64,000 bases of DNA from positions 1-64,000 of the IMG/VR virus record IMGVR_UViG_3300021364_000012. The stretch is one strand, 5' to 3'. Under the pieces are notes generated by a model, which saw only the letters and a program-made list of their open reading frames with translations, was not told the DNA's origin and did no database searches. The stretch is from a virus. Position numbers and translations under genes: made by a program. Shown here one piece after another: positions 1-51,127 of the stretch (the first letter of the stretch is position 1; each line of letters opens with the position of its first letter).

Positions 1-178
1 GCCTCAACTCCTGCCTCAGCTCCTGCTTCTGCACCTGCCTCTGCACCTGCCTCAGCACCTGCCTCTGCACCTGCCTCAGCACCTGCCTCAGCACCTGCCT
101 CAGCTCCTCCTTCTGCTCCCCCTTCTGAACCCCCTCCCATACCTGCTTCCATACCTGCTTCCGCTCCGGCTTCCGAAC
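1..178. repeat. Imperfect 12-bp coding tandem repeat (gcacctgcctca-like) encoding EAGA units
   Basis: Directly visible; in frame with the lipoprotein. Confidence 0.9.
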
Positions 179-254
179 CCCCAACTACAGGCTTGGGTTG
201 ATCTTCTCCGCAAGAAATAATGAAAAGCAGTGATACAAGTAAGAATAGTCTCAT
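1..254 (-). CDS. Lipoprotein with (EAGA)n low-complexity linker; 3' end runs off the window (not in the ORF track)
   Basis: Manual translation from ATG at 254: MRLFLLVSLLFIISCGEDQPKPVVGGSEAGAEAGMEAG...; hydrophobic signal ending in lipobox IISC; SD GAGGAG upstream. Confidence 0.75.
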   Translation of the reverse strand, partial: MRLFLLVSLLFIISCGEDQPKPVVGGSEAGAEAGMEAGMGGGSEGGAEGGAEAGAEAGAEAGAEAGAEAGAEAGAEAGAEAGVE

Positions 255-2934: not shown

Positions 2935-3297
2935 TCACCTTCTATTTTGAAAAAAGTTTAAAAGTTGGTTGTAGATTTTGACAAGAGACTCTTGAGTGTC
3001 GGATAAGTCTTTCTCAATCTTCTCCTGCGATTTCTCAATGTACTTAAAGTCACTGATCTTACTCTTATTAGAATTTATAGAAGAACTATTTGATTCTACT
3101 GACTTCTTGATTTCAGCCAAGTCACCATTCAAATCAGAAATAGAGTCTTTGATTATCGCTATATCTACCGAAATAGTATAAGCCCAAATCAACACAGGCA
3201 ACATCATCGCTGAAAGAGCTTTAAAAAATAAATCTAAGAGCTTCCTTTGGACTCTCTCTTCTTGCTTCATTTCATCGTGGTTTGAATCTTCAGACAT
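2935..3297 (-). CDS. Single-TM coiled-coil protein (possible lysis accessory)
   Basis: TM segment ALSAMMLPVLIWAYTI followed by heptad repeats. Confidence 0.55.
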   Translation of the reverse strand: MSEDSNHDEMKQEERVQRKLLDLFFKALSAMMLPVLIWAYTISVDIAIIKDSISDLNGDLAEIKKSVESNSSSINSNKSKISDFKYIEKSQEKIEKDLSDTQESLVKIYNQLLNFFQNRR

Positions 3298-4212: not shown

Positions 4213-5163
4213 TCAGTAGATTACGTCTTTTATTTCAAAGCCACCCTCTTCATCGAAGAAAGAAAACTCTTTCACTTCAAAAGAACAAACGGGGCTTTCA
4301 ATGTCTGAATTAATGTCAACGCCTAAGAAGCTCGCTTCTTCTGGGATGATGTACAAGACCATCTTTTTATTTTTAAGGTCTAAAAGTATCTGTGAGCTAG
4401 TGTACATGTTGTCGGTCTTACGGACAACATTGAACGGACTATCTAAATCTACATATTTCTGCGAATACAAAGAGGGGGCTATTTCTTCTATTTTAAGATT
4501 GGGCAAAGTATCAAGCGTGATCTGCATCCTACGCTTACTACTCTCTGCATTCTCTCCCAAGGTATATCCAGCATCAGGATACTTCGACCCATGATTACTA
4601 CGAACTAAGATTTCATCTTGAGCTATTTCTTGAAAATAAGGTGCGTGTTTCGCAGTGTGCTCAAGAGAAAAAGCACGAAGCCCATCTGAAACAATAGTAT
4701 GTCCTCTAATACCACCTTCAAAAGACACTAGCTCTTCCATCGCTTCTTCAAGCGTCTTACATTCTAAGGCTCTCAGAATTCTTCTAGCGTCTTTAGAGCC
4801 TATTGCACCAAGAACTGCCCCTTCACCTTTTTTCTTACCTGCCTTCCCTTCTTTCTCATCCCAAAGAACCATCAAAGCGGAGTTAACAAGTCCAATACCA
4901 AACTCATTGACACCTTCAACCCAACCAGTGTTTTCGTCTTTCATATAGACAATCTCAACACCTCTTGAAATCGTATGGTAAATCTTAAGTTCAGGAGAGT
5001 AATTTCTATCTCTATTTTTAAAGAGCACTCTATGCCCTTCTGAATTGACGTGTGCTATCACGCAGGCTTTCTTTTGAATGCTGCGGTAAATGTGAGTCTC
5101 TGCCACTTTCAGTCTTGAAAGTTTCTTGCTCGCTATTTTTGTAATTTCACTAGAAATAGCCAT
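4213..5163 (-). CDS. Ntn-hydrolase (C45/acyltransferase-like) with a 33-aa basic propeptide
   Basis: C34-VIAH...LFKNRDR, EGVNEFG, RSNH and SSKRR motifs of Cys-nucleophile Ntn hydrolases. Confidence 0.7.
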   Translation of the reverse strand: MAISSEITKIASKKLSRLKVAETHIYRSIQKKACVIAHVNSEGHRVLFKNRDRNYSPELKIYHTISRGVEIVYMKDENTGWVEGVNEFGIGLVNSALMVLWDEKEGKAGKKKGEGAVLGAIGSKDARRILRALECKTLEEAMEELVSFEGGIRGHTIVSDGLRAFSLEHTAKHAPYFQEIAQDEILVRSNHGSKYPDAGYTLGENAESSKRRMQITLDTLPNLKIEEIAPSLYSQKYVDLDSPFNVVRKTDNMYTSSQILLDLKNKKMVLYIIPEEASFLGVDINSDIESPVCSFEVKEFSFFDEEGGFEIKDVIY

Positions 5164-5193
5164 CGAAGCCTCCTTAATCTAAATATGAGACAA

Positions 5194-5205
5194 ATATAAG
5201 AACTA
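5194..5205 (-). promoter_or_regulatory. Candidate late promoter TAGTTCTTATAT
   Basis: Variant of the recurrent motif, about 30 nt upstream of the Ntn-hydrolase ATG. Confidence 0.5.
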
Positions 5206-5991
5206 CCAATCCAACTTCAAAGAAACTATATTCGTCAGATCGTATTTCTCAACCCCTTTTGGAGGGCGAGAGTCATAATTAAACTTAAACGCATTGGTGA
5301 TATATGTGTTCTTGTGGAATCTATAGTTGAACCCAAGCTCTGAGAGTATTCTAAAGTCTCTAAAATCTGAAACCTTTGGCTGATAGTATGCAATGAAAGA
5401 ATACGAAGAGTGGTCTGCCACAATATTTCTAATAGAAGCATAGTTTGTTAGCCTAAAAACAAAGCCCTCACCTCTCTCAGAAATAAGGGACTCATATTCA
5501 ACCATACCCCCAACACCGAAAGCGAGTACGTCTGAAATCGGAATCTTAACTGTACTCTCATCTCTCTCTTCATACCTTAAACCAAAACCTAAGAGTTGGC
5601 GTAGTTTAAGATCGCTAAACCTATCACTCTGATATTGAGTGAACCCCTCTACACCCAAAAAAGATTCATACCTGTCTACAAGAACACCCAAGTCATCATA
5701 GAACATGTAAGTATTTCTAACATGTGCAAACTTAGCGTCTTTATAGTCTGAATCATTACTTTGACCGTAATCATAACCACCCATAATGAAAAAATGATTA
5801 GATTGTGTGTTGTGGTCTAGTCTCAAAGAAGAACTCAAATCAAAGACATTGTTGTTCCCTCTTTTAAACTGAGAGCCTAAAGAAAGAGTGGTCAAAAAAC
5901 CTTTCTTTGAAGCTCTCATACTCTCAATATTAACTTGAGAGTACGAGACAAAAGGAAGAAGCAATAAACTCAGAAAGATCAACCGCACCAT
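5203..5991 (-). CDS. Outer-membrane beta-barrel protein, DUF481/YdiY-like
   Basis: Signal peptide plus 'QVNIE', amphipathic beta strands, 'YYQP..SDF.D.R', 'YDSRPP.GV.KYD', C-terminal Trp. Confidence 0.75.
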   Translation of the reverse strand: MVRLIFLSLLLLPFVSYSQVNIESMRASKKGFLTTLSLGSQFKRGNNNVFDLSSSLRLDHNTQSNHFFIMGGYDYGQSNDSDYKDAKFAHVRNTYMFYDDLGVLVDRYESFLGVEGFTQYQSDRFSDLKLRQLLGFGLRYEERDESTVKIPISDVLAFGVGGMVEYESLISERGEGFVFRLTNYASIRNIVADHSSYSFIAYYQPKVSDFRDFRILSELGFNYRFHKNTYITNAFKFNYDSRPPKGVEKYDLTNIVSLKLDW

Positions 5992-6534: not shown

Positions 6535-7206
6535 TTAAAGTACACTGCCATCTGAACCATATACGACAACTAGAGGATCAAGAGCCTCATTTGTTCTTGG
6601 GTCAACTCTAGCACTCTTAGCTTTTGAAAGAAAGCCCTCAGCGAGAGAGATATGGAAGCTTGAATCTTCATCGTGGATGGGAGCATATACCGTCTCATCA
6701 AAGAGACTAGCTTGGTCAGCCACAGAAATATAGGCATCATCTACGTCCGTTCCTGCTGGCACTGTAAAGTGAGCACCACCAAGAATAGCTAAGATGTTAG
6801 CAGTGGTAGCGGTACTGCTACCTGCACCTAGCTCACCCTCAAGACCGGTATCATCGTTGAAGACACCACCGATAATACCACCTAAGTCTGAAAGGTCTGC
6901 ACCATCTCGCATTTCTGCGATTACTGCATTTGCAAAAGCGGTAGCTTGAGCCACTGTAGGGTTAATCCCTGCACCGTCCACATCAAGCGTCACTAAGAAA
7001 TAAGCAGAAAGACCGCTAACGTCTCTAGTAACAACTAGATTTGAAACAGAAGGTGTCTCATTCTCTACGACTCTAAGGTATCTAGGGCCTTGTGGAGCAG
7101 GGTCAATTACGGCACTCGCTTGAGACTTGTTAGGGAACAAGTCCGACACCATAAGTTGACCATTCTTGATAGATGCGTCTCTAATACAAATTACTGGATT
7201 TGCCAT
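6535..7206 (-). CDS. Putative virion structural protein, paralog 3 of a tandem triplet
   Basis: Shares V[ST]DLFPNK[ST]Q...Q[GS]P.Y and C-terminal PL..VY..DG.L with its neighbours. Confidence 0.65.
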   Translation of the reverse strand: MANPVICIRDASIKNGQLMVSDLFPNKSQASAVIDPAPQGPRYLRVVENETPSVSNLVVTRDVSGLSAYFLVTLDVDGAGINPTVAQATAFANAVIAEMRDGADLSDLGGIIGGVFNDDTGLEGELGAGSSTATTANILAILGGAHFTVPAGTDVDDAYISVADQASLFDETVYAPIHDEDSSFHISLAEGFLSKAKSARVDPRTNEALDPLVVVYGSDGSVL

Positions 7207-7218
7207 TGTTCTCTTCCT

Positions 7219-7932
7219 TTACTGAATGAGGGTTCCGTCATCGGCATAAACAACGACTAAAGGCTCAGGTTCACCTTTAGCGTTCTTACGAGTTTGAGCT
7301 TTTTTGATTTGACCACTCTTAGCAGAAAGAATGAACGTGTTGTCAAAGTTAGTATAGAGCTTACTTGCATCAGAGGGGTCTGAGAAGAAACCAGCTTGGA
7401 CGTTAGGTAGAAGACGATTGAAAGCTCCACCGTCTTCTACATCTTGACCCGCAGGGACTGAATATACTTTGTAGCCACTGACAATCTGAAGAATTTCAAG
7501 AACGGTTGCAGTGGTGTTCCCAAGTGCAATGCCTTGTGCAGGTGGGTTATTTGGAGCACCTGTGCGAGTGCTAATAATAACATTAATGTCATAAGAAGTA
7601 AGAGACAAGCCCTTCTGCATTCTTTCGACAATATCTGAAGCCATCTCATTCGCCATATTCGCAGTAATTGCAATACGACCACCATTTGAATCTTCTACCG
7701 TAGTTAAAAGATAAACAGCCAAACCACTAAAATCTGCCGTAGTAGCGAAATCTGCATTAAGCTCTACTTCTTCTGTCAGAGGAGTGACAGGAGCATGGAA
7801 ATACATAGGACCTTGGAAGTTCGGGGTTAAAACCGCACTATGTTGAGTCTTATTTGGGAACAGATCAGTAACCTGAAGAGCGACACGATCTTCGGTAGAG
7901 TTAAGAACTCTAGGTGTACATAAAAAAGGCAT
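7219..7932 (-). CDS. Putative virion structural protein, paralog 2 of a tandem triplet
   Basis: Same conserved N- and C-terminal motifs. Confidence 0.65.
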   Translation of the reverse strand: MPFLCTPRVLNSTEDRVALQVTDLFPNKTQHSAVLTPNFQGPMYFHAPVTPLTEEVELNADFATTADFSGLAVYLLTTVEDSNGGRIAITANMANEMASDIVERMQKGLSLTSYDINVIISTRTGAPNNPPAQGIALGNTTATVLEILQIVSGYKVYSVPAGQDVEDGGAFNRLLPNVQAGFFSDPSDASKLYTNFDNTFILSAKSGQIKKAQTRKNAKGEPEPLVVVYADDGTLIQ

Positions 7933-7950
7933 AGCATTAACTCCTATTTC

Positions 7951-8670
7951 TTAGTTTTGTAAAGAGCCATCTACTTCGTAGACAGAAAGAAGAGGTTGTG
8001 TGGAACGAACTCCAGCAAAGAGATCGCCCTCTTGACTATCTACAACTGTGGTCAACCCTTTAAGGACGCCATCTCTCAAAGAAATCTGCCAAGAGTCGTC
8101 ACCAGGAATAAGGTGTTTTTGATCGCCTTTGAATCCAAGACGATAATTTACGTCTGGAATAAAAACATTAGCTTCCTCAACCTTGGTGTTTGCAGAAACC
8201 TCGTAGGTTTCTCCCGAAAGGATTCTTAGGATGTCTTCCACTCTAGCGACAGAAAGACTCCCCCCTGCCCCATCATCAAGAACAGTACCTGCGTTATTTG
8301 TAGCGATAGCTAAAATAGCGTTGATTTCAGCCTCTCCAAGGTCTCCTGCACCATACACTTCGTCAAGAATTAGATTTGCCGCTGTCAGTGCTTCACTGCG
8401 TGAAAGTGAACCATTATCGCCGTGTTGAACATTCTTAATCAGAAAAGGCACAAGACCTTGTGCTCTAAATCTAATTACAGAAGTCCCTGCTACAGGAACG
8501 GAAAGCTCTACCTTTGCACCGATAAGAGGTGTTTTAATGTAGAGTGGACTCTGACCTTGTGGGTCAATAGTTGGGTTCGCTTGGCTTTTGTTTGGGAACA
8601 AGTCTGTTACCATCAAAGAGCCATTTTGAATTTCTTTTCTTCTTGCTACAAGATAAACTTGAGTAGGCAT
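7951..8670 (-). CDS. Putative virion structural protein, paralog 1 of a tandem triplet
   Basis: Same conserved N- and C-terminal motifs; SD AAGGAG. Confidence 0.65.
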   Translation of the reverse strand: MPTQVYLVARRKEIQNGSLMVTDLFPNKSQANPTIDPQGQSPLYIKTPLIGAKVELSVPVAGTSVIRFRAQGLVPFLIKNVQHGDNGSLSRSEALTAANLILDEVYGAGDLGEAEINAILAIATNNAGTVLDDGAGGSLSVARVEDILRILSGETYEVSANTKVEEANVFIPDVNYRLGFKGDQKHLIPGDDSWQISLRDGVLKGLTTVVDSQEGDLFAGVRSTQPLLSVYEVDGSLQN

Positions 8671-11225: not shown

Positions 11226-11495
11226 GTGAAGCAATCTTGGAAAAACGTAGCGGGCTTGTTAGTGTACCCACACTTTAAGAAAAAACAGAAAATAAGAACA
11301 CATAAAAAAGGAGATTACGAGGGCTGGATTCCAGATTTAGAAGACCCTGTGACTCTCCACTTCTTTTTAGGACTCTTAATAGAGCAAGGAACAGAAATAG
11401 TAAAAATAGAAGAAACCTACAAGCTAGATGGAGAAGAAATGACTAAAGAACAACTCAAAGAGTGGATTTTCAGTGCATTTCTTGAGGAAGAATAA
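11226..11495 (+). CDS. Hypothetical protein
   Basis: Fills the gap; 'WIPDLEDPVTL' motif; start uncertain (GTG 11226). Confidence 0.45.
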   Translation: MKQSWKNVAGLLVYPHFKKKQKIRTHKKGDYEGWIPDLEDPVTLHFFLGLLIEQGTEIVKIEETYKLDGEEMTKEQLKEWIFSAFLEEE

Positions 11496-12081
11496 ATGTG
11501 TCTTCCTTAGATCGACCATCATAGTAACCTAGCTTTGCCATCACCGAAAAAGAAAGAACGCCCCCATTCTCGTCTTCTCTGACAACATTGCCTTTTTCCA
11601 CACTCTTCTCAACAAACCCCTTAACATAAGAGGGAGAGACGCCCTCTTTGTTTAAAGCTATAGTGATGAAAGGGTGGGGGTAGGAAACAAGCTCTTTTAA
11701 AGAACTAGGTGGTTCTATCAACACAGCTACTGCTTTTTCGTTTGCAACAAGACCTGTGATCTTCAGACCTACTTCACTGCCAATCTTACCTACAAAAGAC
11801 TCAGGAATATCTGAAGCTCTCCCTTTCTCTCCAAACATCTGAATAGGCATATGATGTGAGACGATTGACCATCCTGCCCAATTGCTAGGGGTGGCATCTT
11901 GCTTCGACACCCAAGAAAGAAGCCTGTTCTTTTCAGACTCTGAGATGACGGCTTCAAGAAATAAAACAACCGTGTCTTCAGAGGCTTTCTTTAGGTAGCT
12001 TGCAATCTTCTGTCTCAACTCAGGACGCTCTTTTGCAATCCTAATCAATTTTTTTTCGGATTTGGTCAATCTCTCGTACAT
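11470..12081 (-). CDS. 2H-phosphoesterase-like fold with degenerate HxT motifs and an N-terminal LIRIA..RPELR leader
   Basis: 'HHMPI' and 'PHPFITIA' at the expected spacing with the intervening 'V.L.ITG...NEKAVAV'. Confidence 0.5.
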   Translation of the reverse strand: MYERLTKSEKKLIRIAKERPELRQKIASYLKKASEDTVVLFLEAVISESEKNRLLSWVSKQDATPSNWAGWSIVSHHMPIQMFGEKGRASDIPESFVGKIGSEVGLKITGLVANEKAVAVLIEPPSSLKELVSYPHPFITIALNKEGVSPSYVKGFVEKSVEKGNVVREDENGGVLSFSVMAKLGYYDGRSKEDTFILPQEMH

Positions 12082-26676: not shown

Positions 26677-28638
26677 CTACCCTCTCAACCTTTGTCTGAG
26701 AAGATAAACATTCGTCTCATGAGCTGAAGCTAAAGACATGATGAAATCGTCCATCCCTAAAGAAAGAGTCTCTTGCTGTTGAAGGTAGTCGTAAACTCTC
26801 TTAAACACCTTCTGAAGTGCCTCTTCCACAAACAACGCTCTTAAAATAGGATGATCTTGAGATTGCATCTCTACAATAGGAAGTAAAGCATTTGCCATAA
26901 TCTGAGCTTGATCTACAGGAGCCACTGCTTCTGGACCATAAGAACCGACTATCTTTTCTGCAAGAGTGTCTATTTCTTCCACAAGTCCTGTGTAGAGTCT
27001 TTCCATAAGAAGGTGATCACCATAGTAAGGAGAGCCTTTAACTTGCCAATGTGATGTCCAATGTGCCCAATGAGCACCACGAAGACAAGCTAGAAATATC
27101 TGAAGGGCAGTTAGACTGTTCATTGGCATACTCGCTTTCTTTTTTCTCCACTTACCACCTAGTCGCTTATATTCTTTGGCGGCGTATCCATTCGCATAAG
27201 CACTAGGATAAGTCTCAAAACCTTCACCACCCTTTACAGGTTGAGAACACTCTCCATTCTTACATACCTCTTTAGAACGATCTCCTCGAACTAAGTCGAG
27301 AATGTCTTCCCAAAGGTCAGGGTCGATAGGCTCATTGTCTCCTGCGGTTCGCATAGAGAAATAATCTGAAAGACTCTCAACATATATTTCTTCGAGCATC
27401 TTCTCTTGGTTTGGTTCTTGCCAATCCACAAAAGCAAAGAAATGAGAAAGAGGCATCTCTAAGTAACCTACCTCAGAACCCATAGAAATAATATTTTGAA
27501 TTGGGTTTAAATGATACAAAACCACATCGCAACCTAAAACCTTACATGAGATGTTGAGCAACATCTGTAAATCTGAAGCTCTGCGAGTTCCTGGTCTTTT
27601 GTATCGCTTAAGTGTATTCTTGTGCTTTCTTCTCCAACTTTTAACTCTTCGCTTAATCTTAGATTTGTTTTTTCTATAGTAAGCTCTAGCTCTTCTTCTA
27701 GCCTGTTGAATAGAGCCACCTGTTTGTCTCTTTCTTTTTGCTCTCTGCCTCTGCTGTTTAGGTCTCGAACGACTACCCGGACCTTTCTTGTAAATAGCAC
27801 CTGCATCTATTTCTTCAGAGAATTTAACCTCTGAGGTTCCTTCTAAAGGAACCAAAACTTCTTTATACATCGCAGACATGACATCAAGAACAGCCTGTTT
27901 CTTCATTTCCTCAAACAACATATAACTAGCCTTTCTTTTATTTCTCATATCTTTATTCTTTTTAGCAGGCGAAGAATATCCACCACCTTCGTATCTCTTA
28001 TATCTTTCAGGAGATTGCCTTCTTCTTTTCTGATACATAAGAATACGTCTTTTATTTCTTCGGTAGTATCGTCTTCTTTGTTGTATTTGCTTACTACGAT
28101 TTGTACGCATAACTTTCTTGCGATAAAGATCGTAAATCCTTCTGACTCTGCCTTTTGTTTTGCGTTGTCTTCTTTTAGGAGGACGAATATTTATTTTTCC
28201 ACGACCTGTATAAGCACTTTCTATTTCTGAAGAAAGAACTCTTCTTTTCAGTCCTGTGGACTGAGATTGATCTATATGTGGGTTTCCGTATTCATCTCCA
28301 GGAACTCCCGAAGACCTTGGTCTTTTATGTAAGGGCTTTCCATCAGGATGGTCAGAAATAGCAAACTCACTCTTGGGCTTTTTATTCGTATTCCCTGCTG
28401 AGTCTGAAGGCACATTATGTATAGGAGGACCAGCTCTTTGCTCGTCTCTACCTTTCGGATGACCACTCGGTAAAGGTAAGACTCGATCTCTTTGAGGTTC
28501 ACCATCAGCGTAGTCTGGACGACTTGGGTCAGGACTAGAAGAGTCTTCTTGAAGACCGTCTTGACGGTTCTTCTCTACCCAAGTCTTCACCCCTGCTAAA
28601 TCTTGAAAGGGCTGACTATGTGAATAACTGCGATCCAT
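26677..28638 (-). CDS. Multidomain protein: Arg/Lys-rich segments + PSAY motif + C-terminal Dps/ferritin-like domain
   Basis: 'HWQVKG..YYGDH...ERLY...IDTLAEK' (Dps-like ferroxidase motif) at 26677-27129; two protamine-like tracts. Confidence 0.75.
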   Translation of the reverse strand: MDRSYSHSQPFQDLAGVKTWVEKNRQDGLQEDSSSPDPSRPDYADGEPQRDRVLPLPSGHPKGRDEQRAGPPIHNVPSDSAGNTNKKPKSEFAISDHPDGKPLHKRPRSSGVPGDEYGNPHIDQSQSTGLKRRVLSSEIESAYTGRGKINIRPPKRRQRKTKGRVRRIYDLYRKKVMRTNRSKQIQQRRRYYRRNKRRILMYQKRRRQSPERYKRYEGGGYSSPAKKNKDMRNKRKASYMLFEEMKKQAVLDVMSAMYKEVLVPLEGTSEVKFSEEIDAGAIYKKGPGSRSRPKQQRQRAKRKRQTGGSIQQARRRARAYYRKNKSKIKRRVKSWRRKHKNTLKRYKRPGTRRASDLQMLLNISCKVLGCDVVLYHLNPIQNIISMGSEVGYLEMPLSHFFAFVDWQEPNQEKMLEEIYVESLSDYFSMRTAGDNEPIDPDLWEDILDLVRGDRSKEVCKNGECSQPVKGGEGFETYPSAYANGYAAKEYKRLGGKWRKKKASMPMNSLTALQIFLACLRGAHWAHWTSHWQVKGSPYYGDHLLMERLYTGLVEEIDTLAEKIVGSYGPEAVAPVDQAQIMANALLPIVEMQSQDHPILRALFVEEALQKVFKRVYDYLQQQETLSLGMDDFIMSLASAHETNVYLLRQRLRG

Positions 28639-28677
28639 TTAGAACTCCTCACTCCAACACTTGAAGTAAAGAGTTTT

Positions 28678-28689
28678 ATCAATAAACTA
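28678..28689 (-). promoter_or_regulatory. Candidate late promoter TAGTTTATTGAT with an SD-sequestering hairpin (28643-28675)
   Basis: Motif variant about 40 nt upstream of the ATG; 15-bp stem. Confidence 0.55.
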
Positions 28690-28962
28690 CAACTCTAAAG
28701 TTTCAAACTCGGAGTTAGAAATATAAACGGGAGTGTGTTTCCCGACATATGACCCTAAAATATTAAAGTCAAAGTGCTCTACTGCCATAGTATAAGCATC
28801 TTCTTCAGAAATACCTTCCTCTCCTGAAAATATTTCTTTTTGTAGATGTTCTAAAATCTTATCTTTATCATAAGCTACAACATGTCCGTCTATAGAATAG
28901 CAGAGTCCTATAATCATAGAGTCAAAAACAGATCGTGGTTCTAAAAACATTAAATTTTCCAA
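28687..28962 (-). CDS. Conserved phage hypothetical protein
   Basis: 'FD..IIG...VAYD.DKIL...A.EHFDFNILGSYVG..TPV' pattern common in phages. Confidence 0.65.
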   Translation of the reverse strand: MENLMFLEPRSVFDSMIIGLCYSIDGHVVAYDKDKILEHLQKEIFSGEEGISEEDAYTMAVEHFDFNILGSYVGKHTPVYISNSEFETLEL

Positions 28963-28976
28963 GGGAAGTACTCGCT

Positions 28977-29255
28977 ATGAAAGATTATGTAAAAAAAAGA
29001 GCAGACAAAATATACAATGAAATATCTTCTGCAAAAAAACAATGGATTACCTTAATATACCCAAGCGAATCTTATAATAGCAAAAAAGGCTACGAGCTTT
29101 GGGTAGAAGACTATAAAGAAAACGTACTCATAATAAAATGCGACTTTGAAGAAACATACTTAATCCAATATGAGATGGTGGAAATAAGAATGTACTCTTT
29201 TGATACAGTCCTGAAGTTCCTAGACATCATTATACTCGAAGGGAAAATCATTTGA
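28977..29255 (+). CDS. Hypothetical protein
   Basis: ORF coupled to the next gene. Confidence 0.5.
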   Translation: MKDYVKKRADKIYNEISSAKKQWITLIYPSESYNSKKGYELWVEDYKENVLIIKCDFEETYLIQYEMVEIRMYSFDTVLKFLDIIILEGKII

Positions 29256-29473
29256 GTGATTACGAAAAAATAGACCATCCAGATCATTATCAAGGCGTAA
29301 ATATGGAAGCCATTGATGTGATAGAACAGTATAATCTTAACTTCTCATTAGGGTCGGCTCTTAAATATATTTTAAGAGCAGGAAAGAAACCTAATGAGAA
29401 AGCATCTGAAGACCTCAAGAAAGCAGTATGGTATCTCCAAAGGGAGATAAGCAGAAAAGGAGAAAGCAATTGA
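29252..29473 (+). CDS. DUF3310 (SaV-like) protein
   Basis: DHPDHY...EAIDVI...F.LG.ALKY..RAGKK...EDLKKA.WYL. Confidence 0.9.
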   Translation: MSDYEKIDHPDHYQGVNMEAIDVIEQYNLNFSLGSALKYILRAGKKPNEKASEDLKKAVWYLQREISRKGESN

Positions 29474-30489
29474 ACTACATTGCAGAATACTTATGGATTG
29501 ACGGGGGGAACCCAACATCAAGAATAAGGTCTAAGACCAAAGTTTTTGAGACAGACAAAGAATTAAGCTTAGAGGTTTTCCCTGAGTGGTCTTTTGATGG
29601 CTCTTCTACAGAACAAGCAGTAGGAAATAACTCAGACTGCGTTCTAAGACCTGTGTTCTTTTGTTTCGATCCTACAAGGAAGGGAGTCAACACTGTCATC
29701 GTCCTATGTGAAGTGTACGATGTAGATGGAAACCCACACCCTTCAAACCATCGAGCTAAGTTAAGAGAGACTCTTAACCAAAAGCCTAACCTCGACGCTT
29801 GGGTAGGTTTTGAACAAGAATACACTCTATTTCTTGGATCAAGACCTTTAGGATTTCCTTCAGAAAGAAGATTCCCTCCCGCACAAGGTCCTTATTATTG
29901 TGGCGTTGGTGCAGATGAAGTATCTGGAAGAGAACTTGTAGAAGAGCACCTCAACGCATGTATTTCTGCTGAAATACCAATCACAGGGATCAATGCTGAA
30001 GTGATGCCGGGTCAGTGGGAGTTTCAAATCGGAGGACCTGGAGTAGACCCACTTACAGGTTCAGATTGTCTATGGGTGGCTCGTTGGTTGCTCTATAGAC
30101 TTGGAGAGAAATACAATATTTCTGCGACTCTCGAACCTAAGCCCGTGACTGGAGATTGGAACGGTGCAGGTATGCACACAAATTTCTCAACAGAGTCTAC
30201 AAGAGCAGAAGGAGGTCTTTCAGTGATAGAGCAAATCATGCACACCATGAAAGAAAGAATCTCTGAACACCTTGCAGAATACGGAGAAGGTTACGAAATA
30301 CGTCTCACCGGCAAGCATGAGACTTGTCGATATGACGAGTTTAAATGGGGAGTGTCAGACAGAACTGCGTCTGTAAGAATCCCCGTGACCACATCCAAAG
30401 AAGGAAAAGGCTACTTTGAAGATAGAAGACCCAACGCCAACGCAGACCCATACAGAGTCGCTAGAGTTATCGTTGAGTCCTCTAAATAA
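29470..30489 (+). CDS. glnII: Glutamine synthetase, type II
   Basis: AEYLWIDG, RSKTK, WSFDGSST.QA, GFEQEY, QGPYYCGVG, NAEVMPGQWEFQIG, DWNGAGMHTNFST, EDRRP; TTG start. Confidence 0.92.
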   Translation: MNYIAEYLWIDGGNPTSRIRSKTKVFETDKELSLEVFPEWSFDGSSTEQAVGNNSDCVLRPVFFCFDPTRKGVNTVIVLCEVYDVDGNPHPSNHRAKLRETLNQKPNLDAWVGFEQEYTLFLGSRPLGFPSERRFPPAQGPYYCGVGADEVSGRELVEEHLNACISAEIPITGINAEVMPGQWEFQIGGPGVDPLTGSDCLWVARWLLYRLGEKYNISATLEPKPVTGDWNGAGMHTNFSTESTRAEGGLSVIEQIMHTMKERISEHLAEYGEGYEIRLTGKHETCRYDEFKWGVSDRTASVRIPVTTSKEGKGYFEDRRPNANADPYRVARVIVESSK

Positions 30490-30492
30490 GAA

Positions 30493-31458
30493 TCAAAGTT
30501 CAGCAAGAGCCTTGTCAATCGCTTTAACGACACCCTGAGACTCTACTTCTTTAATAGCATCTAAAATCTCAGAGTGGCTTGCATATCTCTCCACTGCGAT
30601 CTTTGCTCTCTTAGACCAATGTGGAGACATATCCCAATCTACACCTACAGGTAAAGAGACTACCTTAGACTCGTCTGCCCCAATCGTCACAGCACCTTGA
30701 GTCGGGCTAACGTCCCCATCAATTGCTTGTAACAACTGAGCGTCCTCTACTTGTTGTGCGTCAGGAGTAGACATACTCTCTAAGAGTCCGTCAATAGCCT
30801 CGTCTGATACCTCAACGCTATCCGAAACTTCTGCTTCTTCTGCCGAAGCAGTCTTAACGACAGGAGAAACCTCTACAGCATCTTCAACTTGTTGTACTAC
30901 AGGGAACTCTTCTCGGGCAGTCACATTGGCAGAAATACTATCGAGCTTGTTGATCTCAGAACTCGCTTGGTTCCCATCTGAGATTACAGTCTTAACCTTA
31001 GATGAAGTCTTTAGAGAAATAGCAATCTCTTCACCCTCAGAAGCAGAAGGAGCATCACTCGCAATGGTAGCTCCACTCTTATTCTCAATCTTTGCAACAG
31101 GGATAATATCATCCTCTTGTTGCTCAACCACAACCTGAAACTTCTTCTTCTCAGGGGTAGCCTCTTTCTTAATCTCAGAGACGGCTCTCTCTTCGTCATA
31201 GACTTTCTGAACCGCCATCTTCGGCTTTTCTTCCACAGGTTGCTCTTGTGGAAGAGCAGAAGAACCGTCAAAAATCTTCAACCAACCACGCTTCACACCT
31301 GCCTTCAGCTCTGGCATCTGAACAGTCTGACCAAACACCTTAACCTCAAAACCATCGAACTCCACAACATCATCTTTTGAGAGATTCTTTTCGATTTTCC
31401 CAAGATGAATAGTCGTAGTTGCGACTAATTTTACAAAGTTACCTTTTTGAAACGACAT
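30493..31458 (-). CDS. Hypothetical acidic protein (probably virion-associated)
   Basis: 321 aa; folded ends with a low-complexity middle; motif variant TGGTTCTTTTAT at 31508-31519. Confidence 0.6.
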   Translation of the reverse strand: MSFQKGNFVKLVATTTIHLGKIEKNLSKDDVVEFDGFEVKVFGQTVQMPELKAGVKRGWLKIFDGSSALPQEQPVEEKPKMAVQKVYDEERAVSEIKKEATPEKKKFQVVVEQQEDDIIPVAKIENKSGATIASDAPSASEGEEIAISLKTSSKVKTVISDGNQASSEINKLDSISANVTAREEFPVVQQVEDAVEVSPVVKTASAEEAEVSDSVEVSDEAIDGLLESMSTPDAQQVEDAQLLQAIDGDVSPTQGAVTIGADESKVVSLPVGVDWDMSPHWSKRAKIAVERYASHSEILDAIKEVESQGVVKAIDKALAEL

Positions 31459-34821: not shown

Positions 34822-37104
34822 TCAGAAGAACTTGCTTACGTCAGGAGCTGACTCCCAAAGCTTGCTGAGTTCATCTGAAGCAGAGCTTGCTTCACGAGAA
34901 ATATTTCCTAAAGTCTTAACAGAAGACTTACGAGCTGTGGTCTGAGGGCGGAAAGAAGCAGACTTCGCAGATGGAGACTCGCCACCATTCTCTGAAGCGT
35001 TGCCTGGACCAACATCCTCACCCTCATGTCCTGTGGCTTCCTGCATCTCATCACCTGCCATAAAGATACGAGCCAACTTAGGATCAAGACCTGCTTCTTC
35101 GTCAGAAAGACCCATCATGTCCTCTGCAAAATGATCTGGATCATTCTGATCTGCAACAGGCTCTTCACCTGCCATGAGGTCAGTCATGGAAATCTCTTCC
35201 TCAGCCATAGGCTCCTCTGAAGCTACAGGCTCTTCTTCTGAGAACATCATAGCCATCTCTTCCTCAGCCATAGGCTCCTCTGAAGCAACGGCTTCTTCCT
35301 CAGCCATAGGCTCCTCTGAAGCCATAGGCTCCTCTGAAGCTACAGCTTCTTCCTCAGCCATAGTCTCAGCTTGCTCGATCTCTGCAAGCATCTCCGCTAG
35401 GATTTCTTCGTCTGAAGACTCCATATCTTCTGCTTGTCTCTTATCACGCCACATAGACTGATATGCCGCATGGTAGTCTTTATCTGAGTGATCGCCCTCG
35501 CCCCAAGTATCACCAGAAATAGTTGAAGCAGTCTCTTTCGTAGCGTGATCCTTGTGCTTAGTACCAGCCTCAAGCTCTGCAAGCATCTCTGCAAGCATTT
35601 CACGCTCTTCAGCATTAAGATTCATAGCTTGCTTCTTCCAACGATCCTTGTTCTGTGCGTAATACTCCGCATTATACTGCTCTTTCACAGAAACAGGCCA
35701 ACCGCTCTTACCTTTAGTAGACTGATTGTCAGCTCTTTCTTCAGGAGTCATATATCCGAAAGCCTTACCTAGAGCTTCAGCATATCCTTTGCTTTTGTTC
35801 CAATCCGCTCTTGTACCCTTGTTATTGCCTCTAGCAACCATCTCAAGAGTAGCCATAAGAGTTGCGAACTGCTCCTCAGAAAGGATGTTCTCTGCTTCTC
35901 TAGTGCGAGTCTTAACAACTCTCTTAGTCTCGTTTTGTGCAGTAGAAACAGACTTAGCACCACCCTCACCGATAGTACGGTTTACGTTTTTCTTGGTGTA
36001 ATTAGGCTTCTCACCTGGTGCACGACTCTTAACACCCCAAATTTGAGGGTTATCTCGGTAATAAAGGTCATTGTGGTTCTGCTTTACTTGCTTATCCCAC
36101 ATACCTCCACCTTTTTGTGAGCGGCGAGCACCTCTCTCAGCAGGCTTCTGATAGAAACTATCGTCATCAATAGCTTCACCATACGCATTGTGCTTCTTGT
36201 AAGACTTAGCAAGAAGCTCCAAATCTGCAAGAAGGTCTGCCATAAGCTCATGTGACTCAGAGTCATGCTCTTCAGCCATCATCTCGTCAAGGACTGAAGC
36301 TAAACGTGCAAGACCTGCGAGCTTCTTAGTAGGAACACCGTCCTCCTCAGACTCGTCAAGAACATCTACGCTCTCGTCGTCCCCTTCGTATCCAGTCTCA
36401 TCTTGAACTTCGTCGTCTGCTTTTTTTTTTAACTCTGAACGAAGGTGAAGATTTGCTTGGCGAAGCATAGCGATTTCCTCTGCAAGAACTTCAGCAGGAC
36501 TCATAGCCATATCTTCATCTGCCATGATGTCTTCATCTGCCATAAGGTCTTCATCTGCCATGATGTCTTCATCTGCCATAAGGTCTTCTGCCATGACATT
36601 ACCTGGACCGACATCATCTCCCTCGTAGCCTGTCTCTTCCTGCATCTCGTCGCCTGCTAAGAAATCAGAAGCAATTCTCTGAAGTCTAGCGTTGATAGCA
36701 CGATTAGGAAGGTCCATGAAACGAAGTGCGAGGTCTTCTACTTCATCCTGAGAAGCATATTTCCCAAGACGATGCTCTGCAATCTCAATGCACTTAGCAG
36801 CCTTACGCTCCATAGCGAGCTTAAGGTTCTGCTCCTTGAGAGAACGAGTCTCCTCATAGTCAGAAATAGTCTGCTCTTGGGTTGCGGGGTGATCAGGCAT
36901 CCAACCATAAGAAGCTGGAGCAGGACCTGAGCTGTAAGGGCCATCAGTGACACCCTCTCCAAACTCTGAATCAATACCGTAGGCATCTACAGAGGGTTGA
37001 CCTTGAGAAGCAGGGTGTCCGAAATCCTCATAGCCAAGATTATCATAGCCGGGGATTGCAGAGTTAGCCCTGCGATTAAAAGCTGGATATCTACGTTTTG
37101 ACAT
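34822..37104 (-). CDS. Capsid scaffold/prohead core protein
   Basis: Highly acidic helical protein between protease and capsid genes; C-terminal 'LSKLWESAPDVSKFF'. Confidence 0.65.
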   Translation of the reverse strand: MSKRRYPAFNRRANSAIPGYDNLGYEDFGHPASQGQPSVDAYGIDSEFGEGVTDGPYSSGPAPASYGWMPDHPATQEQTISDYEETRSLKEQNLKLAMERKAAKCIEIAEHRLGKYASQDEVEDLALRFMDLPNRAINARLQRIASDFLAGDEMQEETGYEGDDVGPGNVMAEDLMADEDIMADEDLMADEDIMADEDMAMSPAEVLAEEIAMLRQANLHLRSELKKKADDEVQDETGYEGDDESVDVLDESEEDGVPTKKLAGLARLASVLDEMMAEEHDSESHELMADLLADLELLAKSYKKHNAYGEAIDDDSFYQKPAERGARRSQKGGGMWDKQVKQNHNDLYYRDNPQIWGVKSRAPGEKPNYTKKNVNRTIGEGGAKSVSTAQNETKRVVKTRTREAENILSEEQFATLMATLEMVARGNNKGTRADWNKSKGYAEALGKAFGYMTPEERADNQSTKGKSGWPVSVKEQYNAEYYAQNKDRWKKQAMNLNAEEREMLAEMLAELEAGTKHKDHATKETASTISGDTWGEGDHSDKDYHAAYQSMWRDKRQAEDMESSDEEILAEMLAEIEQAETMAEEEAVASEEPMASEEPMAEEEAVASEEPMAEEEMAMMFSEEEPVASEEPMAEEEISMTDLMAGEEPVADQNDPDHFAEDMMGLSDEEAGLDPKLARIFMAGDEMQEATGHEGEDVGPGNASENGGESPSAKSASFRPQTTARKSSVKTLGNISREASSASDELSKLWESAPDVSKFF
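35195..35362. repeat. Coding repeats encoding MAEEE / ASEEP units
   Basis: Directly visible (tcctcagccataggctcctctgaagc units). Confidence 0.85.
36499..36595. repeat. 18-bp coding tandem repeat encoding MADED[IL]
   Basis: Directly visible (tcttcatctgccat units). Confidence 0.85.
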
Positions 37105-37135: not shown

Positions 37136-38485
37136 CTACTGCTCAGAGTTTAGTGAGATCAGTTTTGCTAATCTAACAAGACGAATTGAATCTTTACGAT
37201 TAAGCTTAAAGCCTAGAATGCTCTCTGCTTCCTTAATCAAAGAACCTACACTACTATATTTCTTTGTAAAGGACATTTGTTTAGCCACTTTATAAATATA
37301 GTTTGGTAGATATACATCAAAGTGATCATTAACTATCTGTATATTACGAATAGCATGATCTTTAGTCGAAGCTTTCTTAATTGCAAAGCTAAGATTTCTC
37401 AGATATTTCTGAGAGGCTTCTTTGATAACTGTGTCATCCGTAGTCGTAGCAGAAGCTGTTGGAGGGTTCTGTTGACCACCACCCATGCTTTCGCTTATTT
37501 CTTTCTCAAGCTTTTTCTTTAGCTTGTCAAGAACAGCATCTTTAATGACATCTTCTATCTGATTTAAGAATGACTCAGGAGTCTCATTCTTTGAGCCTTC
37601 CTCTTCATCATCCTCATCATCGCCCATACCAAAGGCACTCTTTTCAATCCACTTAGATGGAACAGAATTCAAAGAAGCTCTATTTGTAGGTATCTCCAAA
37701 GTATTTCTTGCGACCGCACCTCTAAATGCAGGAACAGAAACCCAAGACGCTTCAATAAAAGTGACGCCACCTGTGTCACCTTCCGTCTCATGACCACAAA
37801 GCTCTGCAACTCTGTGCTTGTTCCCACTCTCATCGTAGAAAGTGTTACCCTTTTCATACTTAACGTGCGTACACATTTGTGCTTCATCTGAAGCGACATG
37901 ACCACACTTAGTGCAGATTGTAAAATCCACACTACAGCCCATTGACATCCCGTTCATTTCACCAGAAATAATCTGACTTACGAGGTCTTCGTGCTTTTTA
38001 TCTGTGGCAACAAGTATGTCTACATAGATAGACTCTCCAATGTCTCGGAGAACTGCGTCAATAATACGACCTTTAGAGAGTTCTTCAATCTGAACATGCT
38101 CTACAAAGTTATGAGCACCTACAAAAGTCTTGTAAGATTTCTTAATAACACCCCTAGACCAACAATCTAGGTTGTTATTGATATACTTGTCTGTTTCAGA
38201 AGTAACTCTATAATCTGAGTACTTCCTGTTTATTTCTGTGTTCCCTTCTGTGACGGAACCTGTCTTAGTTCCGGGAACTTGAACTGCATCTACAGAGCAA
38301 ACAATAGTTGCATGTGAAAGAAGAAATCTTTCTGGAGTAAAAGGCTCTCCAAGAATATCCTCAGCTTTTTTTCGCAGAGAATCATTCAGCTTAGAAGAAC
38401 CTGAAGCAACTCTTACTTTGTCCCACTCCCTAGTACGAAGTTGAGGGTGGACAATATTTGCTCTTGCATATCTAAGAAAAGCCAT
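37136..38485 (-). CDS. Prohead maturation protease with inserted Zn finger
   Basis: NNNLD, FVEH (His), KGRIIDA, GMSMGC (Ser), CTKC...CTH, FIEASWV..PAF..A. Confidence 0.8.
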   Translation of the reverse strand: MAFLRYARANIVHPQLRTREWDKVRVASGSSKLNDSLRKKAEDILGEPFTPERFLLSHATIVCSVDAVQVPGTKTGSVTEGNTEINRKYSDYRVTSETDKYINNNLDCWSRGVIKKSYKTFVGAHNFVEHVQIEELSKGRIIDAVLRDIGESIYVDILVATDKKHEDLVSQIISGEMNGMSMGCSVDFTICTKCGHVASDEAQMCTHVKYEKGNTFYDESGNKHRVAELCGHETEGDTGGVTFIEASWVSVPAFRGAVARNTLEIPTNRASLNSVPSKWIEKSAFGMGDDEDDEEEGSKNETPESFLNQIEDVIKDAVLDKLKKKLEKEISESMGGGQQNPPTASATTTDDTVIKEASQKYLRNLSFAIKKASTKDHAIRNIQIVNDHFDVYLPNYIYKVAKQMSFTKKYSSVGSLIKEAESILGFKLNRKDSIRLVRLAKLISLNSEQ

Positions 38486-48775: not shown

Positions 48776-51127
48776 CTATAGCTCAATACCGCCAAACAAC
48801 ACCTCGCCTATTTTTTCAGGACTCGGAGACTCCTCAGAAATAGTGAAGTTGTCATTGGCAGTTAGATTGAATTCCGACTGATCGTAATCATTCACAAAAA
48901 GAGAAGCTGTCCTCTCAGCGTCAGAAGAGTTAGCTAACCTAATCATCTCTTTCTGATAGCTGTCTTTATCTTCTACGATTTCCTGTGATTGATCCACTGC
49001 GTATTTATTATATTTCTGACACTTACCGCCAACATTAAACACACAGCCTCCGCACTTAGCGTTCTTAAGAATTGCAGGAATCTGATTAGCTCGATGAATT
49101 AAAGCCCCCTTGTCACAACCCTCAGTGCCTGTCGTCATGTAGGCTTGAGAGTCTACATAAGCGTGTCCAGAAATACCTTCATGCTCTAACCTCAAAGATG
49201 CAACTCTCTCCTTGTGAAGGTCTAGGATATTCTGAGAGAACCTTGAAGCTAAGAGCACATCAAGCTCTTGACCTGCACTACCTTCTGACATCTTCTGTCT
49301 AAGCCAAGTAGCTACTTTATCCGACTGTACCTCATGTGCAGTCTTCATAGGAGCTGAAGCACTCTTAGAAATATGTGCCTCATATTTATGCCCACTAAAC
49401 TCGACTTTTTTTGCAGAAACACCTTCTTTAGCAAGCCTAGAGAGCGAAACATATTTATCATCACCCTCAAGAGACATCGCACGATTAGCGTCTGACTCTG
49501 AGATAAATCCATTAGAAACAAAGTGATCTATTCGGCTCGCAATCTTCTTCCCCTCTACCACATCTAAAGAAGACACTTCCCCGACAACCTTATTTCTTAC
49601 ATCTGTGAGGACGTGTGCTTTTACAGAGCCTTCATAACTCTGAGTCTCTTTAGGTCGTGCTAAATACTCAAAGACCGATGCCACTTTTTCTTCTGGCGTG
49701 TTCTTGCCTGAAGTAACCTTCTCTACTTCATCATAAGAAATAAGCCCACTAGAAATAAGTTTAGCCACTTTAGCCATTGCCATCTTATTTCTTTTACCCA
49801 ACTCCACCTTTTCAGAAGGCGTGAGAGATGCAGATACGCTACTTCTCTTTGGAACTAAGTAATGAGCTTCTTTGCCCTGACCTTCATATACTGAAGACTT
49901 GTTTGGAGTAGACGCTAGATCATAGAGACGGTCTATCTTCTGCTGTGCAGTCTTGTCCGAAGAAATAACAGCACCAACTTGCTCCGAGTCTAAAAAACCT
50001 TCCGAAACAAGTTGTGAAGCAATCCTATCTAAACGAACCTGTTTAGGGTCTGTTTTTTCCTCAATAAAGAAATCACTATACTCAGAAGCTTGAAGCTCTC
50101 TCTGTGCTTCTTCTGAAGAAATAGACTCAAAATCAAAAGATTGTGTAGGAAACCATGTGTTAGCAACATGAGTATTACCCTCTAAAGACTTAGAGTCTAA
50201 AAACGCTTGTTGAAGCATAGACTTATAACTAGAGCCTGAAACTTTAGTGACTCCAAGAGATTGAAGTCTAGGCATCAAAGTAGAGTAAGCCTTCTTCCAA
50301 GGAATTACATCTACAACCTCTTTCCCTAAGAATCTATCAAACGCACACCCCTGTTTTGAAGGGACAATGTAGAGAGAAGAAGCACATCTTTTATTTATAA
50401 CTTCATCCCATTTGCCGTTAAACAGACCTGGGAAGTACGCTTCTTTTAAGTACACCGTACCATGAAGACCATACTCGGAAGCCAACAACTCTGAAGCACT
50501 CTTTCTTTGTTGCTCAGAAGGAATTATTTCTTCTAAGTCTTTCAAGAGGTCTTCTAGGCTTTCACCGTAAGCCATCTTACGCATCGACTGCTCCACTTTT
50601 TCTCGATAGTCATCGGCAGGAAGCTCAGATACTTCTTCATATGTATTAGTGTATTTCTCGTGGACTCTGTTTTTATTGGGAACCCTCTTCAAGCCGTCTG
50701 TAGACTCTCCTAAGCCCCAAGATTCTTCAAGAGCTTTCATCTGATTAACTTGAGGGTGCTCAAACCTACCTTCAGCAAACTGCTCAAGAACTTCTTCATG
50801 CGTTCTTGAGCCTCCTTCATCTTCTTTAGGCAGAGTCGCCAGCCAAGTGTGATCTACAAGAGGAACAAGCTGACCTGCATCTTTTGTAAAATCCGAAAGG
50901 TCTAAATCTATTTCTCTCTCGACACCTGTAGGTAAATCTGAGTTTAGTTCACCTTCAGGTGGAACCATCCCAAAAGGAAGAGAAGAAATACCCTTAGCTT
51001 CAGGAAGACGTGCCTTATCTTCGACACCATTCCCATACTCAGTGTCGAAATGAAACCCGTCTAGCATATAGTTAGAGCCGTTCGTGAGTGAAAACCCACC
51101 ATTTGGAAGTTTGCTGTTCTTACTCAT
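48776..51127 (-). CDS. Large protein with three internal helical repeats and a C-terminal Cys cluster (probable head protein)
   Basis: Repeats 'LVSEGFL', 'LISSGLI', 'FVSNGFI' each followed by Y/F.G..AH; 'CGGCVFN..GKC'. Confidence 0.6.
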   Translation of the reverse strand: MSKNSKLPNGGFSLTNGSNYMLDGFHFDTEYGNGVEDKARLPEAKGISSLPFGMVPPEGELNSDLPTGVEREIDLDLSDFTKDAGQLVPLVDHTWLATLPKEDEGGSRTHEEVLEQFAEGRFEHPQVNQMKALEESWGLGESTDGLKRVPNKNRVHEKYTNTYEEVSELPADDYREKVEQSMRKMAYGESLEDLLKDLEEIIPSEQQRKSASELLASEYGLHGTVYLKEAYFPGLFNGKWDEVINKRCASSLYIVPSKQGCAFDRFLGKEVVDVIPWKKAYSTLMPRLQSLGVTKVSGSSYKSMLQQAFLDSKSLEGNTHVANTWFPTQSFDFESISSEEAQRELQASEYSDFFIEEKTDPKQVRLDRIASQLVSEGFLDSEQVGAVISSDKTAQQKIDRLYDLASTPNKSSVYEGQGKEAHYLVPKRSSVSASLTPSEKVELGKRNKMAMAKVAKLISSGLISYDEVEKVTSGKNTPEEKVASVFEYLARPKETQSYEGSVKAHVLTDVRNKVVGEVSSLDVVEGKKIASRIDHFVSNGFISESDANRAMSLEGDDKYVSLSRLAKEGVSAKKVEFSGHKYEAHISKSASAPMKTAHEVQSDKVATWLRQKMSEGSAGQELDVLLASRFSQNILDLHKERVASLRLEHEGISGHAYVDSQAYMTTGTEGCDKGALIHRANQIPAILKNAKCGGCVFNVGGKCQKYNKYAVDQSQEIVEDKDSYQKEMIRLANSSDAERTASLFVNDYDQSEFNLTANDNFTISEESPSPEKIGEVLFGGIEL

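Follow-up and report, generated by a model that had tools for sequence, protein, structure and literature searches.

The DNA analysed here is a stretch of 64,000 nucleotides (the window), positions 1 to 64,000 of the IMG/VR virus record IMGVR_UViG_3300021364_000012, and the subject of the analysis is an open reading frame (ORF) on its minus strand at 4213-5163, which encodes a protein of 316 residues and was read directly from the sequence with exact coordinates. The record is 75.9 kb long and was rated approximately 24% complete by CheckV, pointing to a fragment of a jumbo-phage genome, and its terminase, portal, head-maturation protease and tail sheath genes lie on the same strand as the ORF. 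The whole ORF (4213-5163, stop codon at 4213-4215; 93 homologues) was annotated as the proenzyme of a phage-specific hydrolase of the N-terminal nucleophile (Ntn) type with a Cys nucleophile. All features of the gene are on the minus strand and are given in plus-strand numbering. A Shine-Dalgarno sequence, AGGAGG, at 5169-5174 is separated by a spacer of 5 nt from the ATG at 5161-5163, which fixes Met1 and means that a leader of 33 residues (5065-5163) is really translated. This leader or propeptide is basic (six Lys, two Arg and two Glu), is kept in the homologues P0002-P0005 at 75-98% identity and contains K9-I-A↓S12, K19-V-A↓E22 and K31-K-A↓C34, where arrows mark bonds considered for cleavage; the ORF position and the leader with its three sites were all present as described in the original prediction, an earlier reading of this DNA. 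The first site (5128-5139) is one copy of a tetrapeptide enriched in the lineage, [KR]-x-A-S, and a candidate secondary cleavage site. The third is the junction K31-K32-A33↓C34 (5062-5073), in which the Cys34 codon occupies 5062-5064 (gca on the plus strand) and A33-C34 is the predicted scissile bond, whose cutting must free the alpha-amino group of Cys34. The mature Ntn-hydrolase domain follows (residues 34-316; 4216-5064), an alpha-beta-beta-alpha sandwich according to the model and structure matches, and the homologue alignment places in it N50-R51-D52 (5008-5016), which lie 16-18 residues past the nucleophile within an invariant KNRDR, and the invariant pair N190-H191 (4591-4596).

Two details of the original prediction were not upheld. 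The gene had been credited with its own promoter motif, and two sigma-70-like sites do lie upstream (5252-5225 and 5220-5193, minus strand), but they do not rise above chance, five such sites being found near the gene against 5.0 expected in shuffled sequence. The second leader site, KVA↓E, had been offered as a further place of cleavage; the pattern [KR][ILVM]AE shows no enrichment (ratio 1.4-1.6, z 1.0-1.5), and the stretch, which extends to K19-V-A-E-T-H-I (5089-5109), belongs instead to a short terminal motif, [KR][VILM]A[SAE]x[HYF][MILV], that encloses KVA↓E.

A structural model was built with AlphaFold on 50 homologues and is confident, with a predicted local distance difference test score (pLDDT) of 87.4 and a predicted template modelling score (pTM) of 0.82, except in the leader and one loop. 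The leader was modelled as a helix over residues 3-22, at low confidence, followed by disorder up to Cys34; a beta-strand begins at residue 35, and the four layers of the alpha-beta-beta-alpha Ntn fold are all in place. The top Foldseek matches were the precursor and mature forms of isopenicillin-N acyltransferase (IAT; E ~1e-9), followed by CV2077, bile-salt hydrolase (BSH), NAAA and penicillin-V acylase (PVA). In VIA-align superpositions, which gave Z scores of 16-20 against IAT, NAAA, acid ceramidase, BSH, PVA and C69 dipeptidase, residue 34 of the model was the first aligned residue and lay opposite the mature-chain starts of IAT (103), NAAA (126/128), acid ceramidase (143), BSH (2) and PVA (1). 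Invariant across the 50 homologues are C34, K49, R51, D52, R53, Y55, D76, N86, G154, E168, R188, N190, H191, G199, Y200, S208 and R212; the nucleophile Cys is present in all 152 distinct homologue domains, and the homologues that begin Met-Cys show that the family uses an N-terminal Cys. The fold match and the invariant Cys34 together indicate that the protein is a Cys-Ntn hydrolase made with a propeptide. The zymogen identity first proposed is thus supported by fold and conservation, and the Ntn core motifs named in that proposal proved to be real and conserved in the alignment of 50 homologues. An Ntn hydrolase cannot work while its nucleophile is still joined to a preceding residue, since a free alpha-amine is needed.

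At the sequence level the assignment is more distant. The sole Pfam match was sub-threshold (AAT, PF03417; 21.2 bits against a gathering score of 23.2), whereas the homologues P0006, P0008, P0028 and P0049 pass the same profile at 28-34 bits, so that the family is a divergent neighbour of AAT and the query itself is not filed as a member by sequence. PHROGs held no family for the ORF or its neighbours, and a profile search of PDB sequences returned chance kinase matches only. Judged from the model, the enzyme is a distant relative of IAT (C45) and of the bile-salt and penicillin-V acylases.

The residues before the nucleophile were surveyed in 152 distinct homologues, with upstream stop codons and start codons checked in the loci, and the survey took in 80 of at least 530 IMG/VR loci. 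Class A, the clade of the query (n=98), has Lys (77) or Arg (21) three residues before the cut (P3) and Ala (73), Ser (21) or Gly (4) directly before it (P1), and its leaders comprise 5 residues (M-x-K-x-A/S, 65/98), approximately 20-33 residues or N-terminal domains of 150-240 residues. Class B (n=44) has Leu (23), Ile (17) or Val (4) at P3 and Glu at P1 in all 44 sequences, after leaders of 4 to more than 200 residues that are otherwise unconserved, and class C (n=10) starts with Met-Cys and has no leader. The basic-x-Ala tripeptide that the original prediction looked for directly before the Cys therefore holds in the query's clade in the form basic-x-small (98/98) and gives way elsewhere to [LIV]-x-E or Met; these unrelated residues do not refute the zymogen idea, because they track the resident prohead protease. 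Codon 2 of the 5-residue class-A leaders varies freely while P3 stays basic. In fused class-A homologues the motif returns as RVA↓S, KIA↓S or KMA↓S where the Ntn domain ends, 288-295 residues past the Cys. On a maximum-likelihood tree built from this domain, class A formed one clade (Shimodaira-Hasegawa-like approximate likelihood ratio test, SH-aLRT, 95) and class B a paraphyletic grade with at least three deep clades, with class C nested in or beside class B at least twice.

The proposed activator is the prohead protease encoded at 37136-38485 (minus strand; phrog_18299, E 6.6e-15), which carries [KR]-x-A-S at residues 27, 357 and 372. It is distant kin of Bacillus phage G gp19, of many Mycobacterium phage proteins and of Rhodococcus phage E3 gp77, and shares 43% identity with its counterpart in Tunturiibacter phage Tunturi_5. 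Each protease type was sought along the full length of the contigs that hold the loci, with PF03420 (T4 gp21-type, S77) applied at its cut-off. PF03420 scored above this cut-off in none of the class-A records, including genomes rated 100% and 95% complete, in 11 class-B contigs and the cultured phage MA9V-2, and in three of class C; the window-type protease was found in 10 class-A records (43-65% identity) and in none of class B or class C. MA9V-2, in which the Ntn gene is MA9V2_239, belongs to class B, with the junction ..INE↓C (E12↓C13). Its gp21-type domain (locus L134, record positions 167084-167422) scores 30.2 bits, just above the cut-off, and lies inside a frame of 1,213 residues, far longer than T4 gp21.

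The site of T4 gp21 is experimentally established as L/I-x-E, and T4 removes N-terminal propeptides of 7-65 residues, its capsid-targeting sequences (CTS) measuring 10-19 residues (PMC9026906). The class-B tripeptide [LIV]-x-E (44/44) coincides with this site. The T4-like genome G002, rated 98% complete, has the Ntn leader MKKDILINE↓C, and head-module proteins whose genes neighbour gp21 begin in a similar way (MKINNILNE↓S, MKKLKDLLKE↓S, MNLKKLITE↓S and MKSDLLKE↓A). The pattern M-x(2-10)-[LIV]-x-E-[SAC] opens approximately 4% of ORFs in G002 and in a further T4-like genome, G003, 0 of 82 in the window's genome (G000) and 2 of 443 in G006, a complete relative of 376 kb. The class-A motif [KR]-x-[ASG] at the leader boundary matches the tetrapeptide enriched in its lineage, which we read as the probable specificity of the window-type protease. 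It is the class-B match to a known protease motif, together with the independent proteome signal of class A, that carries weight here, and not the co-occurrence of protease and junction class.

This proteome signal was measured by counting [KR]-x-A-S against expectations from per-protein shuffles. The tetrapeptide occurs 49 times in G000 (15.8 expected, z 8.1) and 152 times in G006 (60.2 expected, z 12.2), an over-representation of 2.5-3.1-fold, and shows no excess in the T4-like G002 and G003 (1.07-1.08-fold). The excess is lost if P3 is non-basic, if P1 is Gly, if the residue after the cut (P1') is other than Ser, or if Ala and Ser are swapped; in the first 50 residues of proteins 66 copies were found against 37 expected. 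Copies cluster in an acidic scaffold-like protein of 760 residues encoded beside the protease (34822-37104, minus strand; five sites), in the protease itself (three) and in the ORF at 48776-51127 (eight). Taken together, [KR]-x-A-S is a candidate cleavage code of the phage-G-gp19-like prohead protease, for which the scaffold-like protein would be the likely bulk substrate, and the Ntn junction K-K-A↓C shares the [KR]-x-A form, with an isosteric Cys at P1'. The phage G multi-omics preprint contains no cleavage-site data.

The terminal motif [KR][VILM]A[SAE]x[HYF][MILV], KVAETHI in the query, was found three times in G000 (0.18 expected) and seven times in G006 (0.92 expected), often no more than approximately 20 residues from either end of proteins that are otherwise unrelated. 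Of the 51 class-A leaders of at least 12 residues, 18 carry it, always 8-12 residues before the Cys. Copies of the RVAS[RKAL][YH][ML] type were noted in the window at 38490-41405 (C-terminus, residue 959) and in the G006 ORFs at 53586, 91902, 257901, 261617 and 271122, and a looser variant, RVASLYR, in G000 at 69113-70297, beyond the window. This peptide may be a portable capsid-targeting or protease-docking element. A different N-terminal motif, L-I-R-[IL]-A-x3-PELR, is common to otherwise unrelated proteins (window 11470-12081 and 51725-52693; locus L022 5569-5946). As a general targeting signal LIR[IL]A..PELR was rejected, being carried by two G000 proteins and one L022 protein and by none in the complete G006.

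The family comprises 93 protein clusters and at least 530 IMG/VR loci and is essentially phage-only. Among 185,579 species genomes it occurs in one, on a 22-kb contig of a metagenome-assembled genome with a portal-like gene beside the Ntn gene; the ESM Atlas clusters of the family are 95-100% viral, and among 50,697 records of deposited phages only the Chryseobacterium phages MA9V-1 and MA9V-2 carry it. In loci L083 and L020 the Ntn gene sits in the head module, near portal or protease genes. Fusion partners include ChaC/GGACT gamma-glutamyl cyclotransferases, cytidylyltransferase-like domains, topoisomerase IB with inorganic pyrophosphatase, the PolyA_pol head domain, Zeta-toxin/AAA_33 kinase and DUF3140. 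The fusions to ChaC/GGACT and to unrelated enzymes suggest that the substrate is a small amide or peptide and that the enzyme serves as cargo or effector; delivery in the capsid, as cargo that would act on such a substrate, is favoured but weakly supported. The fused proteins resemble the packaged 'polyvalent' effectors of Iyer et al. (PMC5512222), a paper whose text contains neither 'Ntn' nor 'N-terminal nucleophile'. In L009, L049, L059, L042/L044, L032/L043 and L040 the Ntn domain is N-terminal or internal in proteins of approximately 680-2,100 residues, with polyvalent-effector-like architectures that include topoisomerase IB, pyrophosphatase, PolyA_pol head, cytidylyltransferase-like or Zeta-toxin/AAA_33 domains. 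Large cytidylyltransferase-like proteins with a GRFQPFH[NK]GH motif, NMNAT-like, were also seen in T4-like phages of marine or freshwater type, in G002 (plus strand, 27911-30910; 999 residues) and G003 (116020-119634; 1204 residues). They start with leaders bearing a gp21 site, MGNLIKE↓W.. and MSELSNFLVE↓S.., which suggests packaged enzymes of nucleotide metabolism.

The mechanism proposed for the gene at 4213-5163 is as follows. The precursor of this phage-specific Cys-Ntn amidohydrolase would be made inactive, with Cys34 masked by the leader, whose short terminal motif may bring the proenzyme into the prohead. There the phage's own prohead protease (37136-38485), presumed to prefer [KR]-x-A followed by Ser or Cys, would cut K-K-A↓C34. 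Removal of the leader would free Cys34, and the enzyme would become active only in maturing capsids and probably exit with the DNA. The T4-like phages appear to share this logic but to spell it differently, their leader being T4-CTS-like and closing with the gp21 site, [LIV]-x-E↓C. Such a scheme generalises the original prediction and accounts most simply for the observations as a whole. We infer both the protease cut of the Ntn precursor and the packaging of the protein, and assign a probability of roughly 55% to the reading in which the prohead protease unmasks Cys34 of an inactive Ntn precursor. A broader proposal, which we hold at a little short of even odds, is that a phage-only Ntn family handed its self-activation to the capsid-maturation protease, the junction being written in the code of the resident protease (L/I-x-E in T4-like phages, [KR]-x-A in the jumbo lineage related to phage G), so that the enzyme would gain its activity only within capsids undergoing maturation and would be delivered in active form as their cargo. 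The Ntn enzyme itself was considered as the [KR]-x-A↓S protease and rejected, since the class-B junction is the site of another protease that has been characterised, gp21.

The alternative that survives best is canonical autoproteolysis, in which the bond between A33 and C34 of the folded precursor would be attacked by Cys34 itself through an N-to-S acyl shift, and self-activation in the cytoplasm would need no phage protease. P3 and P1 would then express clade-specific needs of self-cleavage, and the leader would be a folding aid, a transient inhibitor or a self-shed targeting peptide. We regard this as a serious possibility, if on balance a doubtful one. A number of points speak for it or otherwise weigh against activation by the prohead protease. 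To our knowledge, every characterised relative with a propeptide (IAT, NAAA, acid ceramidase, PVA and cephalosporin acylase) self-processes, and the closest structural relatives, namely the precursors of IAT, acid ceramidase, NAAA and PVA, self-activate. A small P1 such as Ala suits autoprocessing chemistry, Ala, Ser or Gly at P1 being typical of self-processing Ntn enzymes, and Bacillus subtilis PurF self-processes at ..E↓C, so that a P1 Glu is not unique to gp21 sites. One mechanism would also cover 5-residue leaders, leaders of 20-33 residues and N-terminal domains of 150-240 residues alike. The class-C enzymes of T4-like phages begin Met-Cys, which makes activity in the cytoplasm possible, implies that an always-active enzyme is tolerated and shows function without a capsid step. 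Since class A is a single clade, the correlation between junction and protease amounts to approximately one switch between classes A and B on the tree and is statistically non-independent. The 5-residue leader of 65 of the 98 class-A homologues is too short for targeting, and G006 and G007, whose protease is of the window type (64-65% identical), have such a leader. When the whole 33-residue leader was compared with the other N-termini of its own phage, the best local score was 32 (shuffle median 30, 95th percentile 36), and the leader as a capsid-targeting sequence shared within that phage was rejected, the similarity not being significant. The cultured phage Tunturi_5, whose protease is related, has no Ntn homologue and a weak [KR].AS enrichment (1.34-fold, z 2.8). 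With regard to packaging, the MA9V-2 paper reports no virion proteome, and no virion proteome contains a family member. Finally, to read [KR]-x-A↓S as marking a cut, and not a place of binding, is to take the specificity of the protease from proteome statistics.

Autoproteolysis nevertheless leaves four observations unexplained: the invariably basic P3 of class A beside a freely varying codon 2 in the 5-residue leaders; the retention by class B of exactly the gp21 site, [LIV]-x-E, across at least three deep clades; the 2.5- to 3-fold excess of [KR]-x-A-S, which is limited to proteomes of the class-A lineage; and the return of the same motif, in fused forms, at the C-terminal boundary of the Ntn domain. 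An improbable alternative is that the Ntn domain acts on no external substrate and serves polyvalent cargo chiefly as a processing module, releasing itself and its fused parts from a targeting peptide. Its promiscuous fusion partners agree with this, as does the view that polyvalent phage proteins carry autoprocessing peptidase domains (PMC5512222); however, the stand-alone Met-Cys forms of 263 residues have nothing to release, the seventeen invariant residues extend beyond the nucleophile as in a true hydrolase active site, and a cut by the Ntn domain would free only the parts N-terminal of it. That the leader is never removed, the product being a non-catalytic structural or binding protein or Cys34 serving as an internal thiol, draws on the indirect nature of the case for processing of family members and is very improbable, given that the full Ntn catalytic constellation is kept in more than 150 sequences, that some members begin Met-Cys and that every solved relative needs the free alpha-amine of its nucleophile.

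Several neighbouring genes were noted. The gene directly upstream of the Ntn gene, at 5203-5991 (minus strand), is an unusual one for a phage: it encodes a DUF481 protein (PF04338, E 9e-15) that apparently bears a signal peptide. A candidate Rz-like spanin (phrog_739, E 5e-6) at 2935-3297 (minus strand) and, at 2594-2926, a small protein that is hydrophobic at its N-terminus may form a lysis module two genes from the Ntn gene. An endolysin role for the Ntn enzyme, prompted by this nearby spanin, was dropped for want of support. Three tandem paralogues of 223-239 residues at 6535-8670 (minus strand) share DLFPNK[ST]Q and have no family match, and the ORF at the window edge (1-254, minus strand) begins like a lipoprotein and continues into a long (A/G)-E-(A/G)-G repeat.

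The enzyme class and the propeptide principle are already known; what is new is the phage-specific family and, probably, the proposed trans-activation mode. Ntn hydrolases are textbook self-activating enzymes, and if in this family the activating cut came from another protease, at a moment set by capsid maturation, the superfamily would gain a new regulatory mode. A search of the full-text literature found no paper joining Ntn hydrolases with prohead proteases, the one match being an unrelated paper on asparagine peptide lyases. We know of no prior case of a prohead protease that does more than trim its substrate and brings a catalytic residue into being; the present system would be the first, and it would define a class of phage cargo that is widespread, with at least 530 viral loci. 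The junction and the [KR]-x-A-S excess would then reveal the protease specificity and the packaged substrates of an uncultured jumbo-phage lineage, and would provide a sequence rule by which packaged proteins could be predicted in jumbo phages without a cultured representative. The same arrangement would suggest how enzymes might be designed, on a natural model, to stay inert until packaged in a capsid. One cultured system, the Chryseobacterium phage MA9V-2, allows the idea to be tested cheaply.

Among known proteins, the best VIA-align match was CV2077 of Chromobacterium violaceum (PDB ID: 3GVZ; Z 20.4, rmsd 2.9 over 219 residues), which is a cellular protein only 16% identical to the query. 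IAT (MEROPS C45, Pfam AAT PF03417; PDB IDs: 2X1C, 2X1D and 2X1E) shares the Ntn fold, is the best Foldseek match (E 9e-10) and places its Cys103 opposite model residue 34 (Z 18.4-18.7), and both proteins are made as precursors with a small P1 and are cut before the Cys. The identity is however only 16-18%, and IAT cuts itself at Gly102↓Cys103 and retains the N-terminal piece as a subunit, whereas the query family is phage-only, has a short, variable and lineage-coded leader, and has Gly at P1 in just 4 of the 98 class-A sequences, the query having Ala. The choloylglycine hydrolases (BSH and PVA; Pfam CBAH) are likewise Cys-Ntn amidases, in which the Cys follows Met or a very short propeptide, and residue 34 aligned with their Cys1/Cys2 (Z 15-17); unlike them, the query has no sequence-level match to that family, and the propeptides here reach 33 to more than 200 residues. 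The catalytic set of PVA and BSH is Cys/Arg/Asp/Asn/Arg. Compared by sequence position rather than by residue superposition, the query offers R51-D52, 17-18 residues past the Cys, together with N190 and R212, all invariant, with no match to Pfam CBAH.

On the protease side, herpesvirus assemblin cleaves (V/L/I)-x-A↓S. The site proposed for the query lineage from proteome statistics likewise has Ala at P1 and Ser at P1', but a basic rather than an aliphatic P3. Prohead proteases are homologous to the herpesvirus protease (PMC9026906). The processing of the T4 internal proteins IPI-III and Alt by gp21, directed by a CTS, is matched in class B, where leaders of 4-25 residues end in [LIV]-x-E in phages of the gp21 type. 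It differs in that the T4 cut only releases cargo, whereas here the cut would also create a catalytic N-terminus, and in that the query has another protease and another code, [KR]-x-A. By analogy, the system most plausibly works most like the CTS-type cargo processing of T4.

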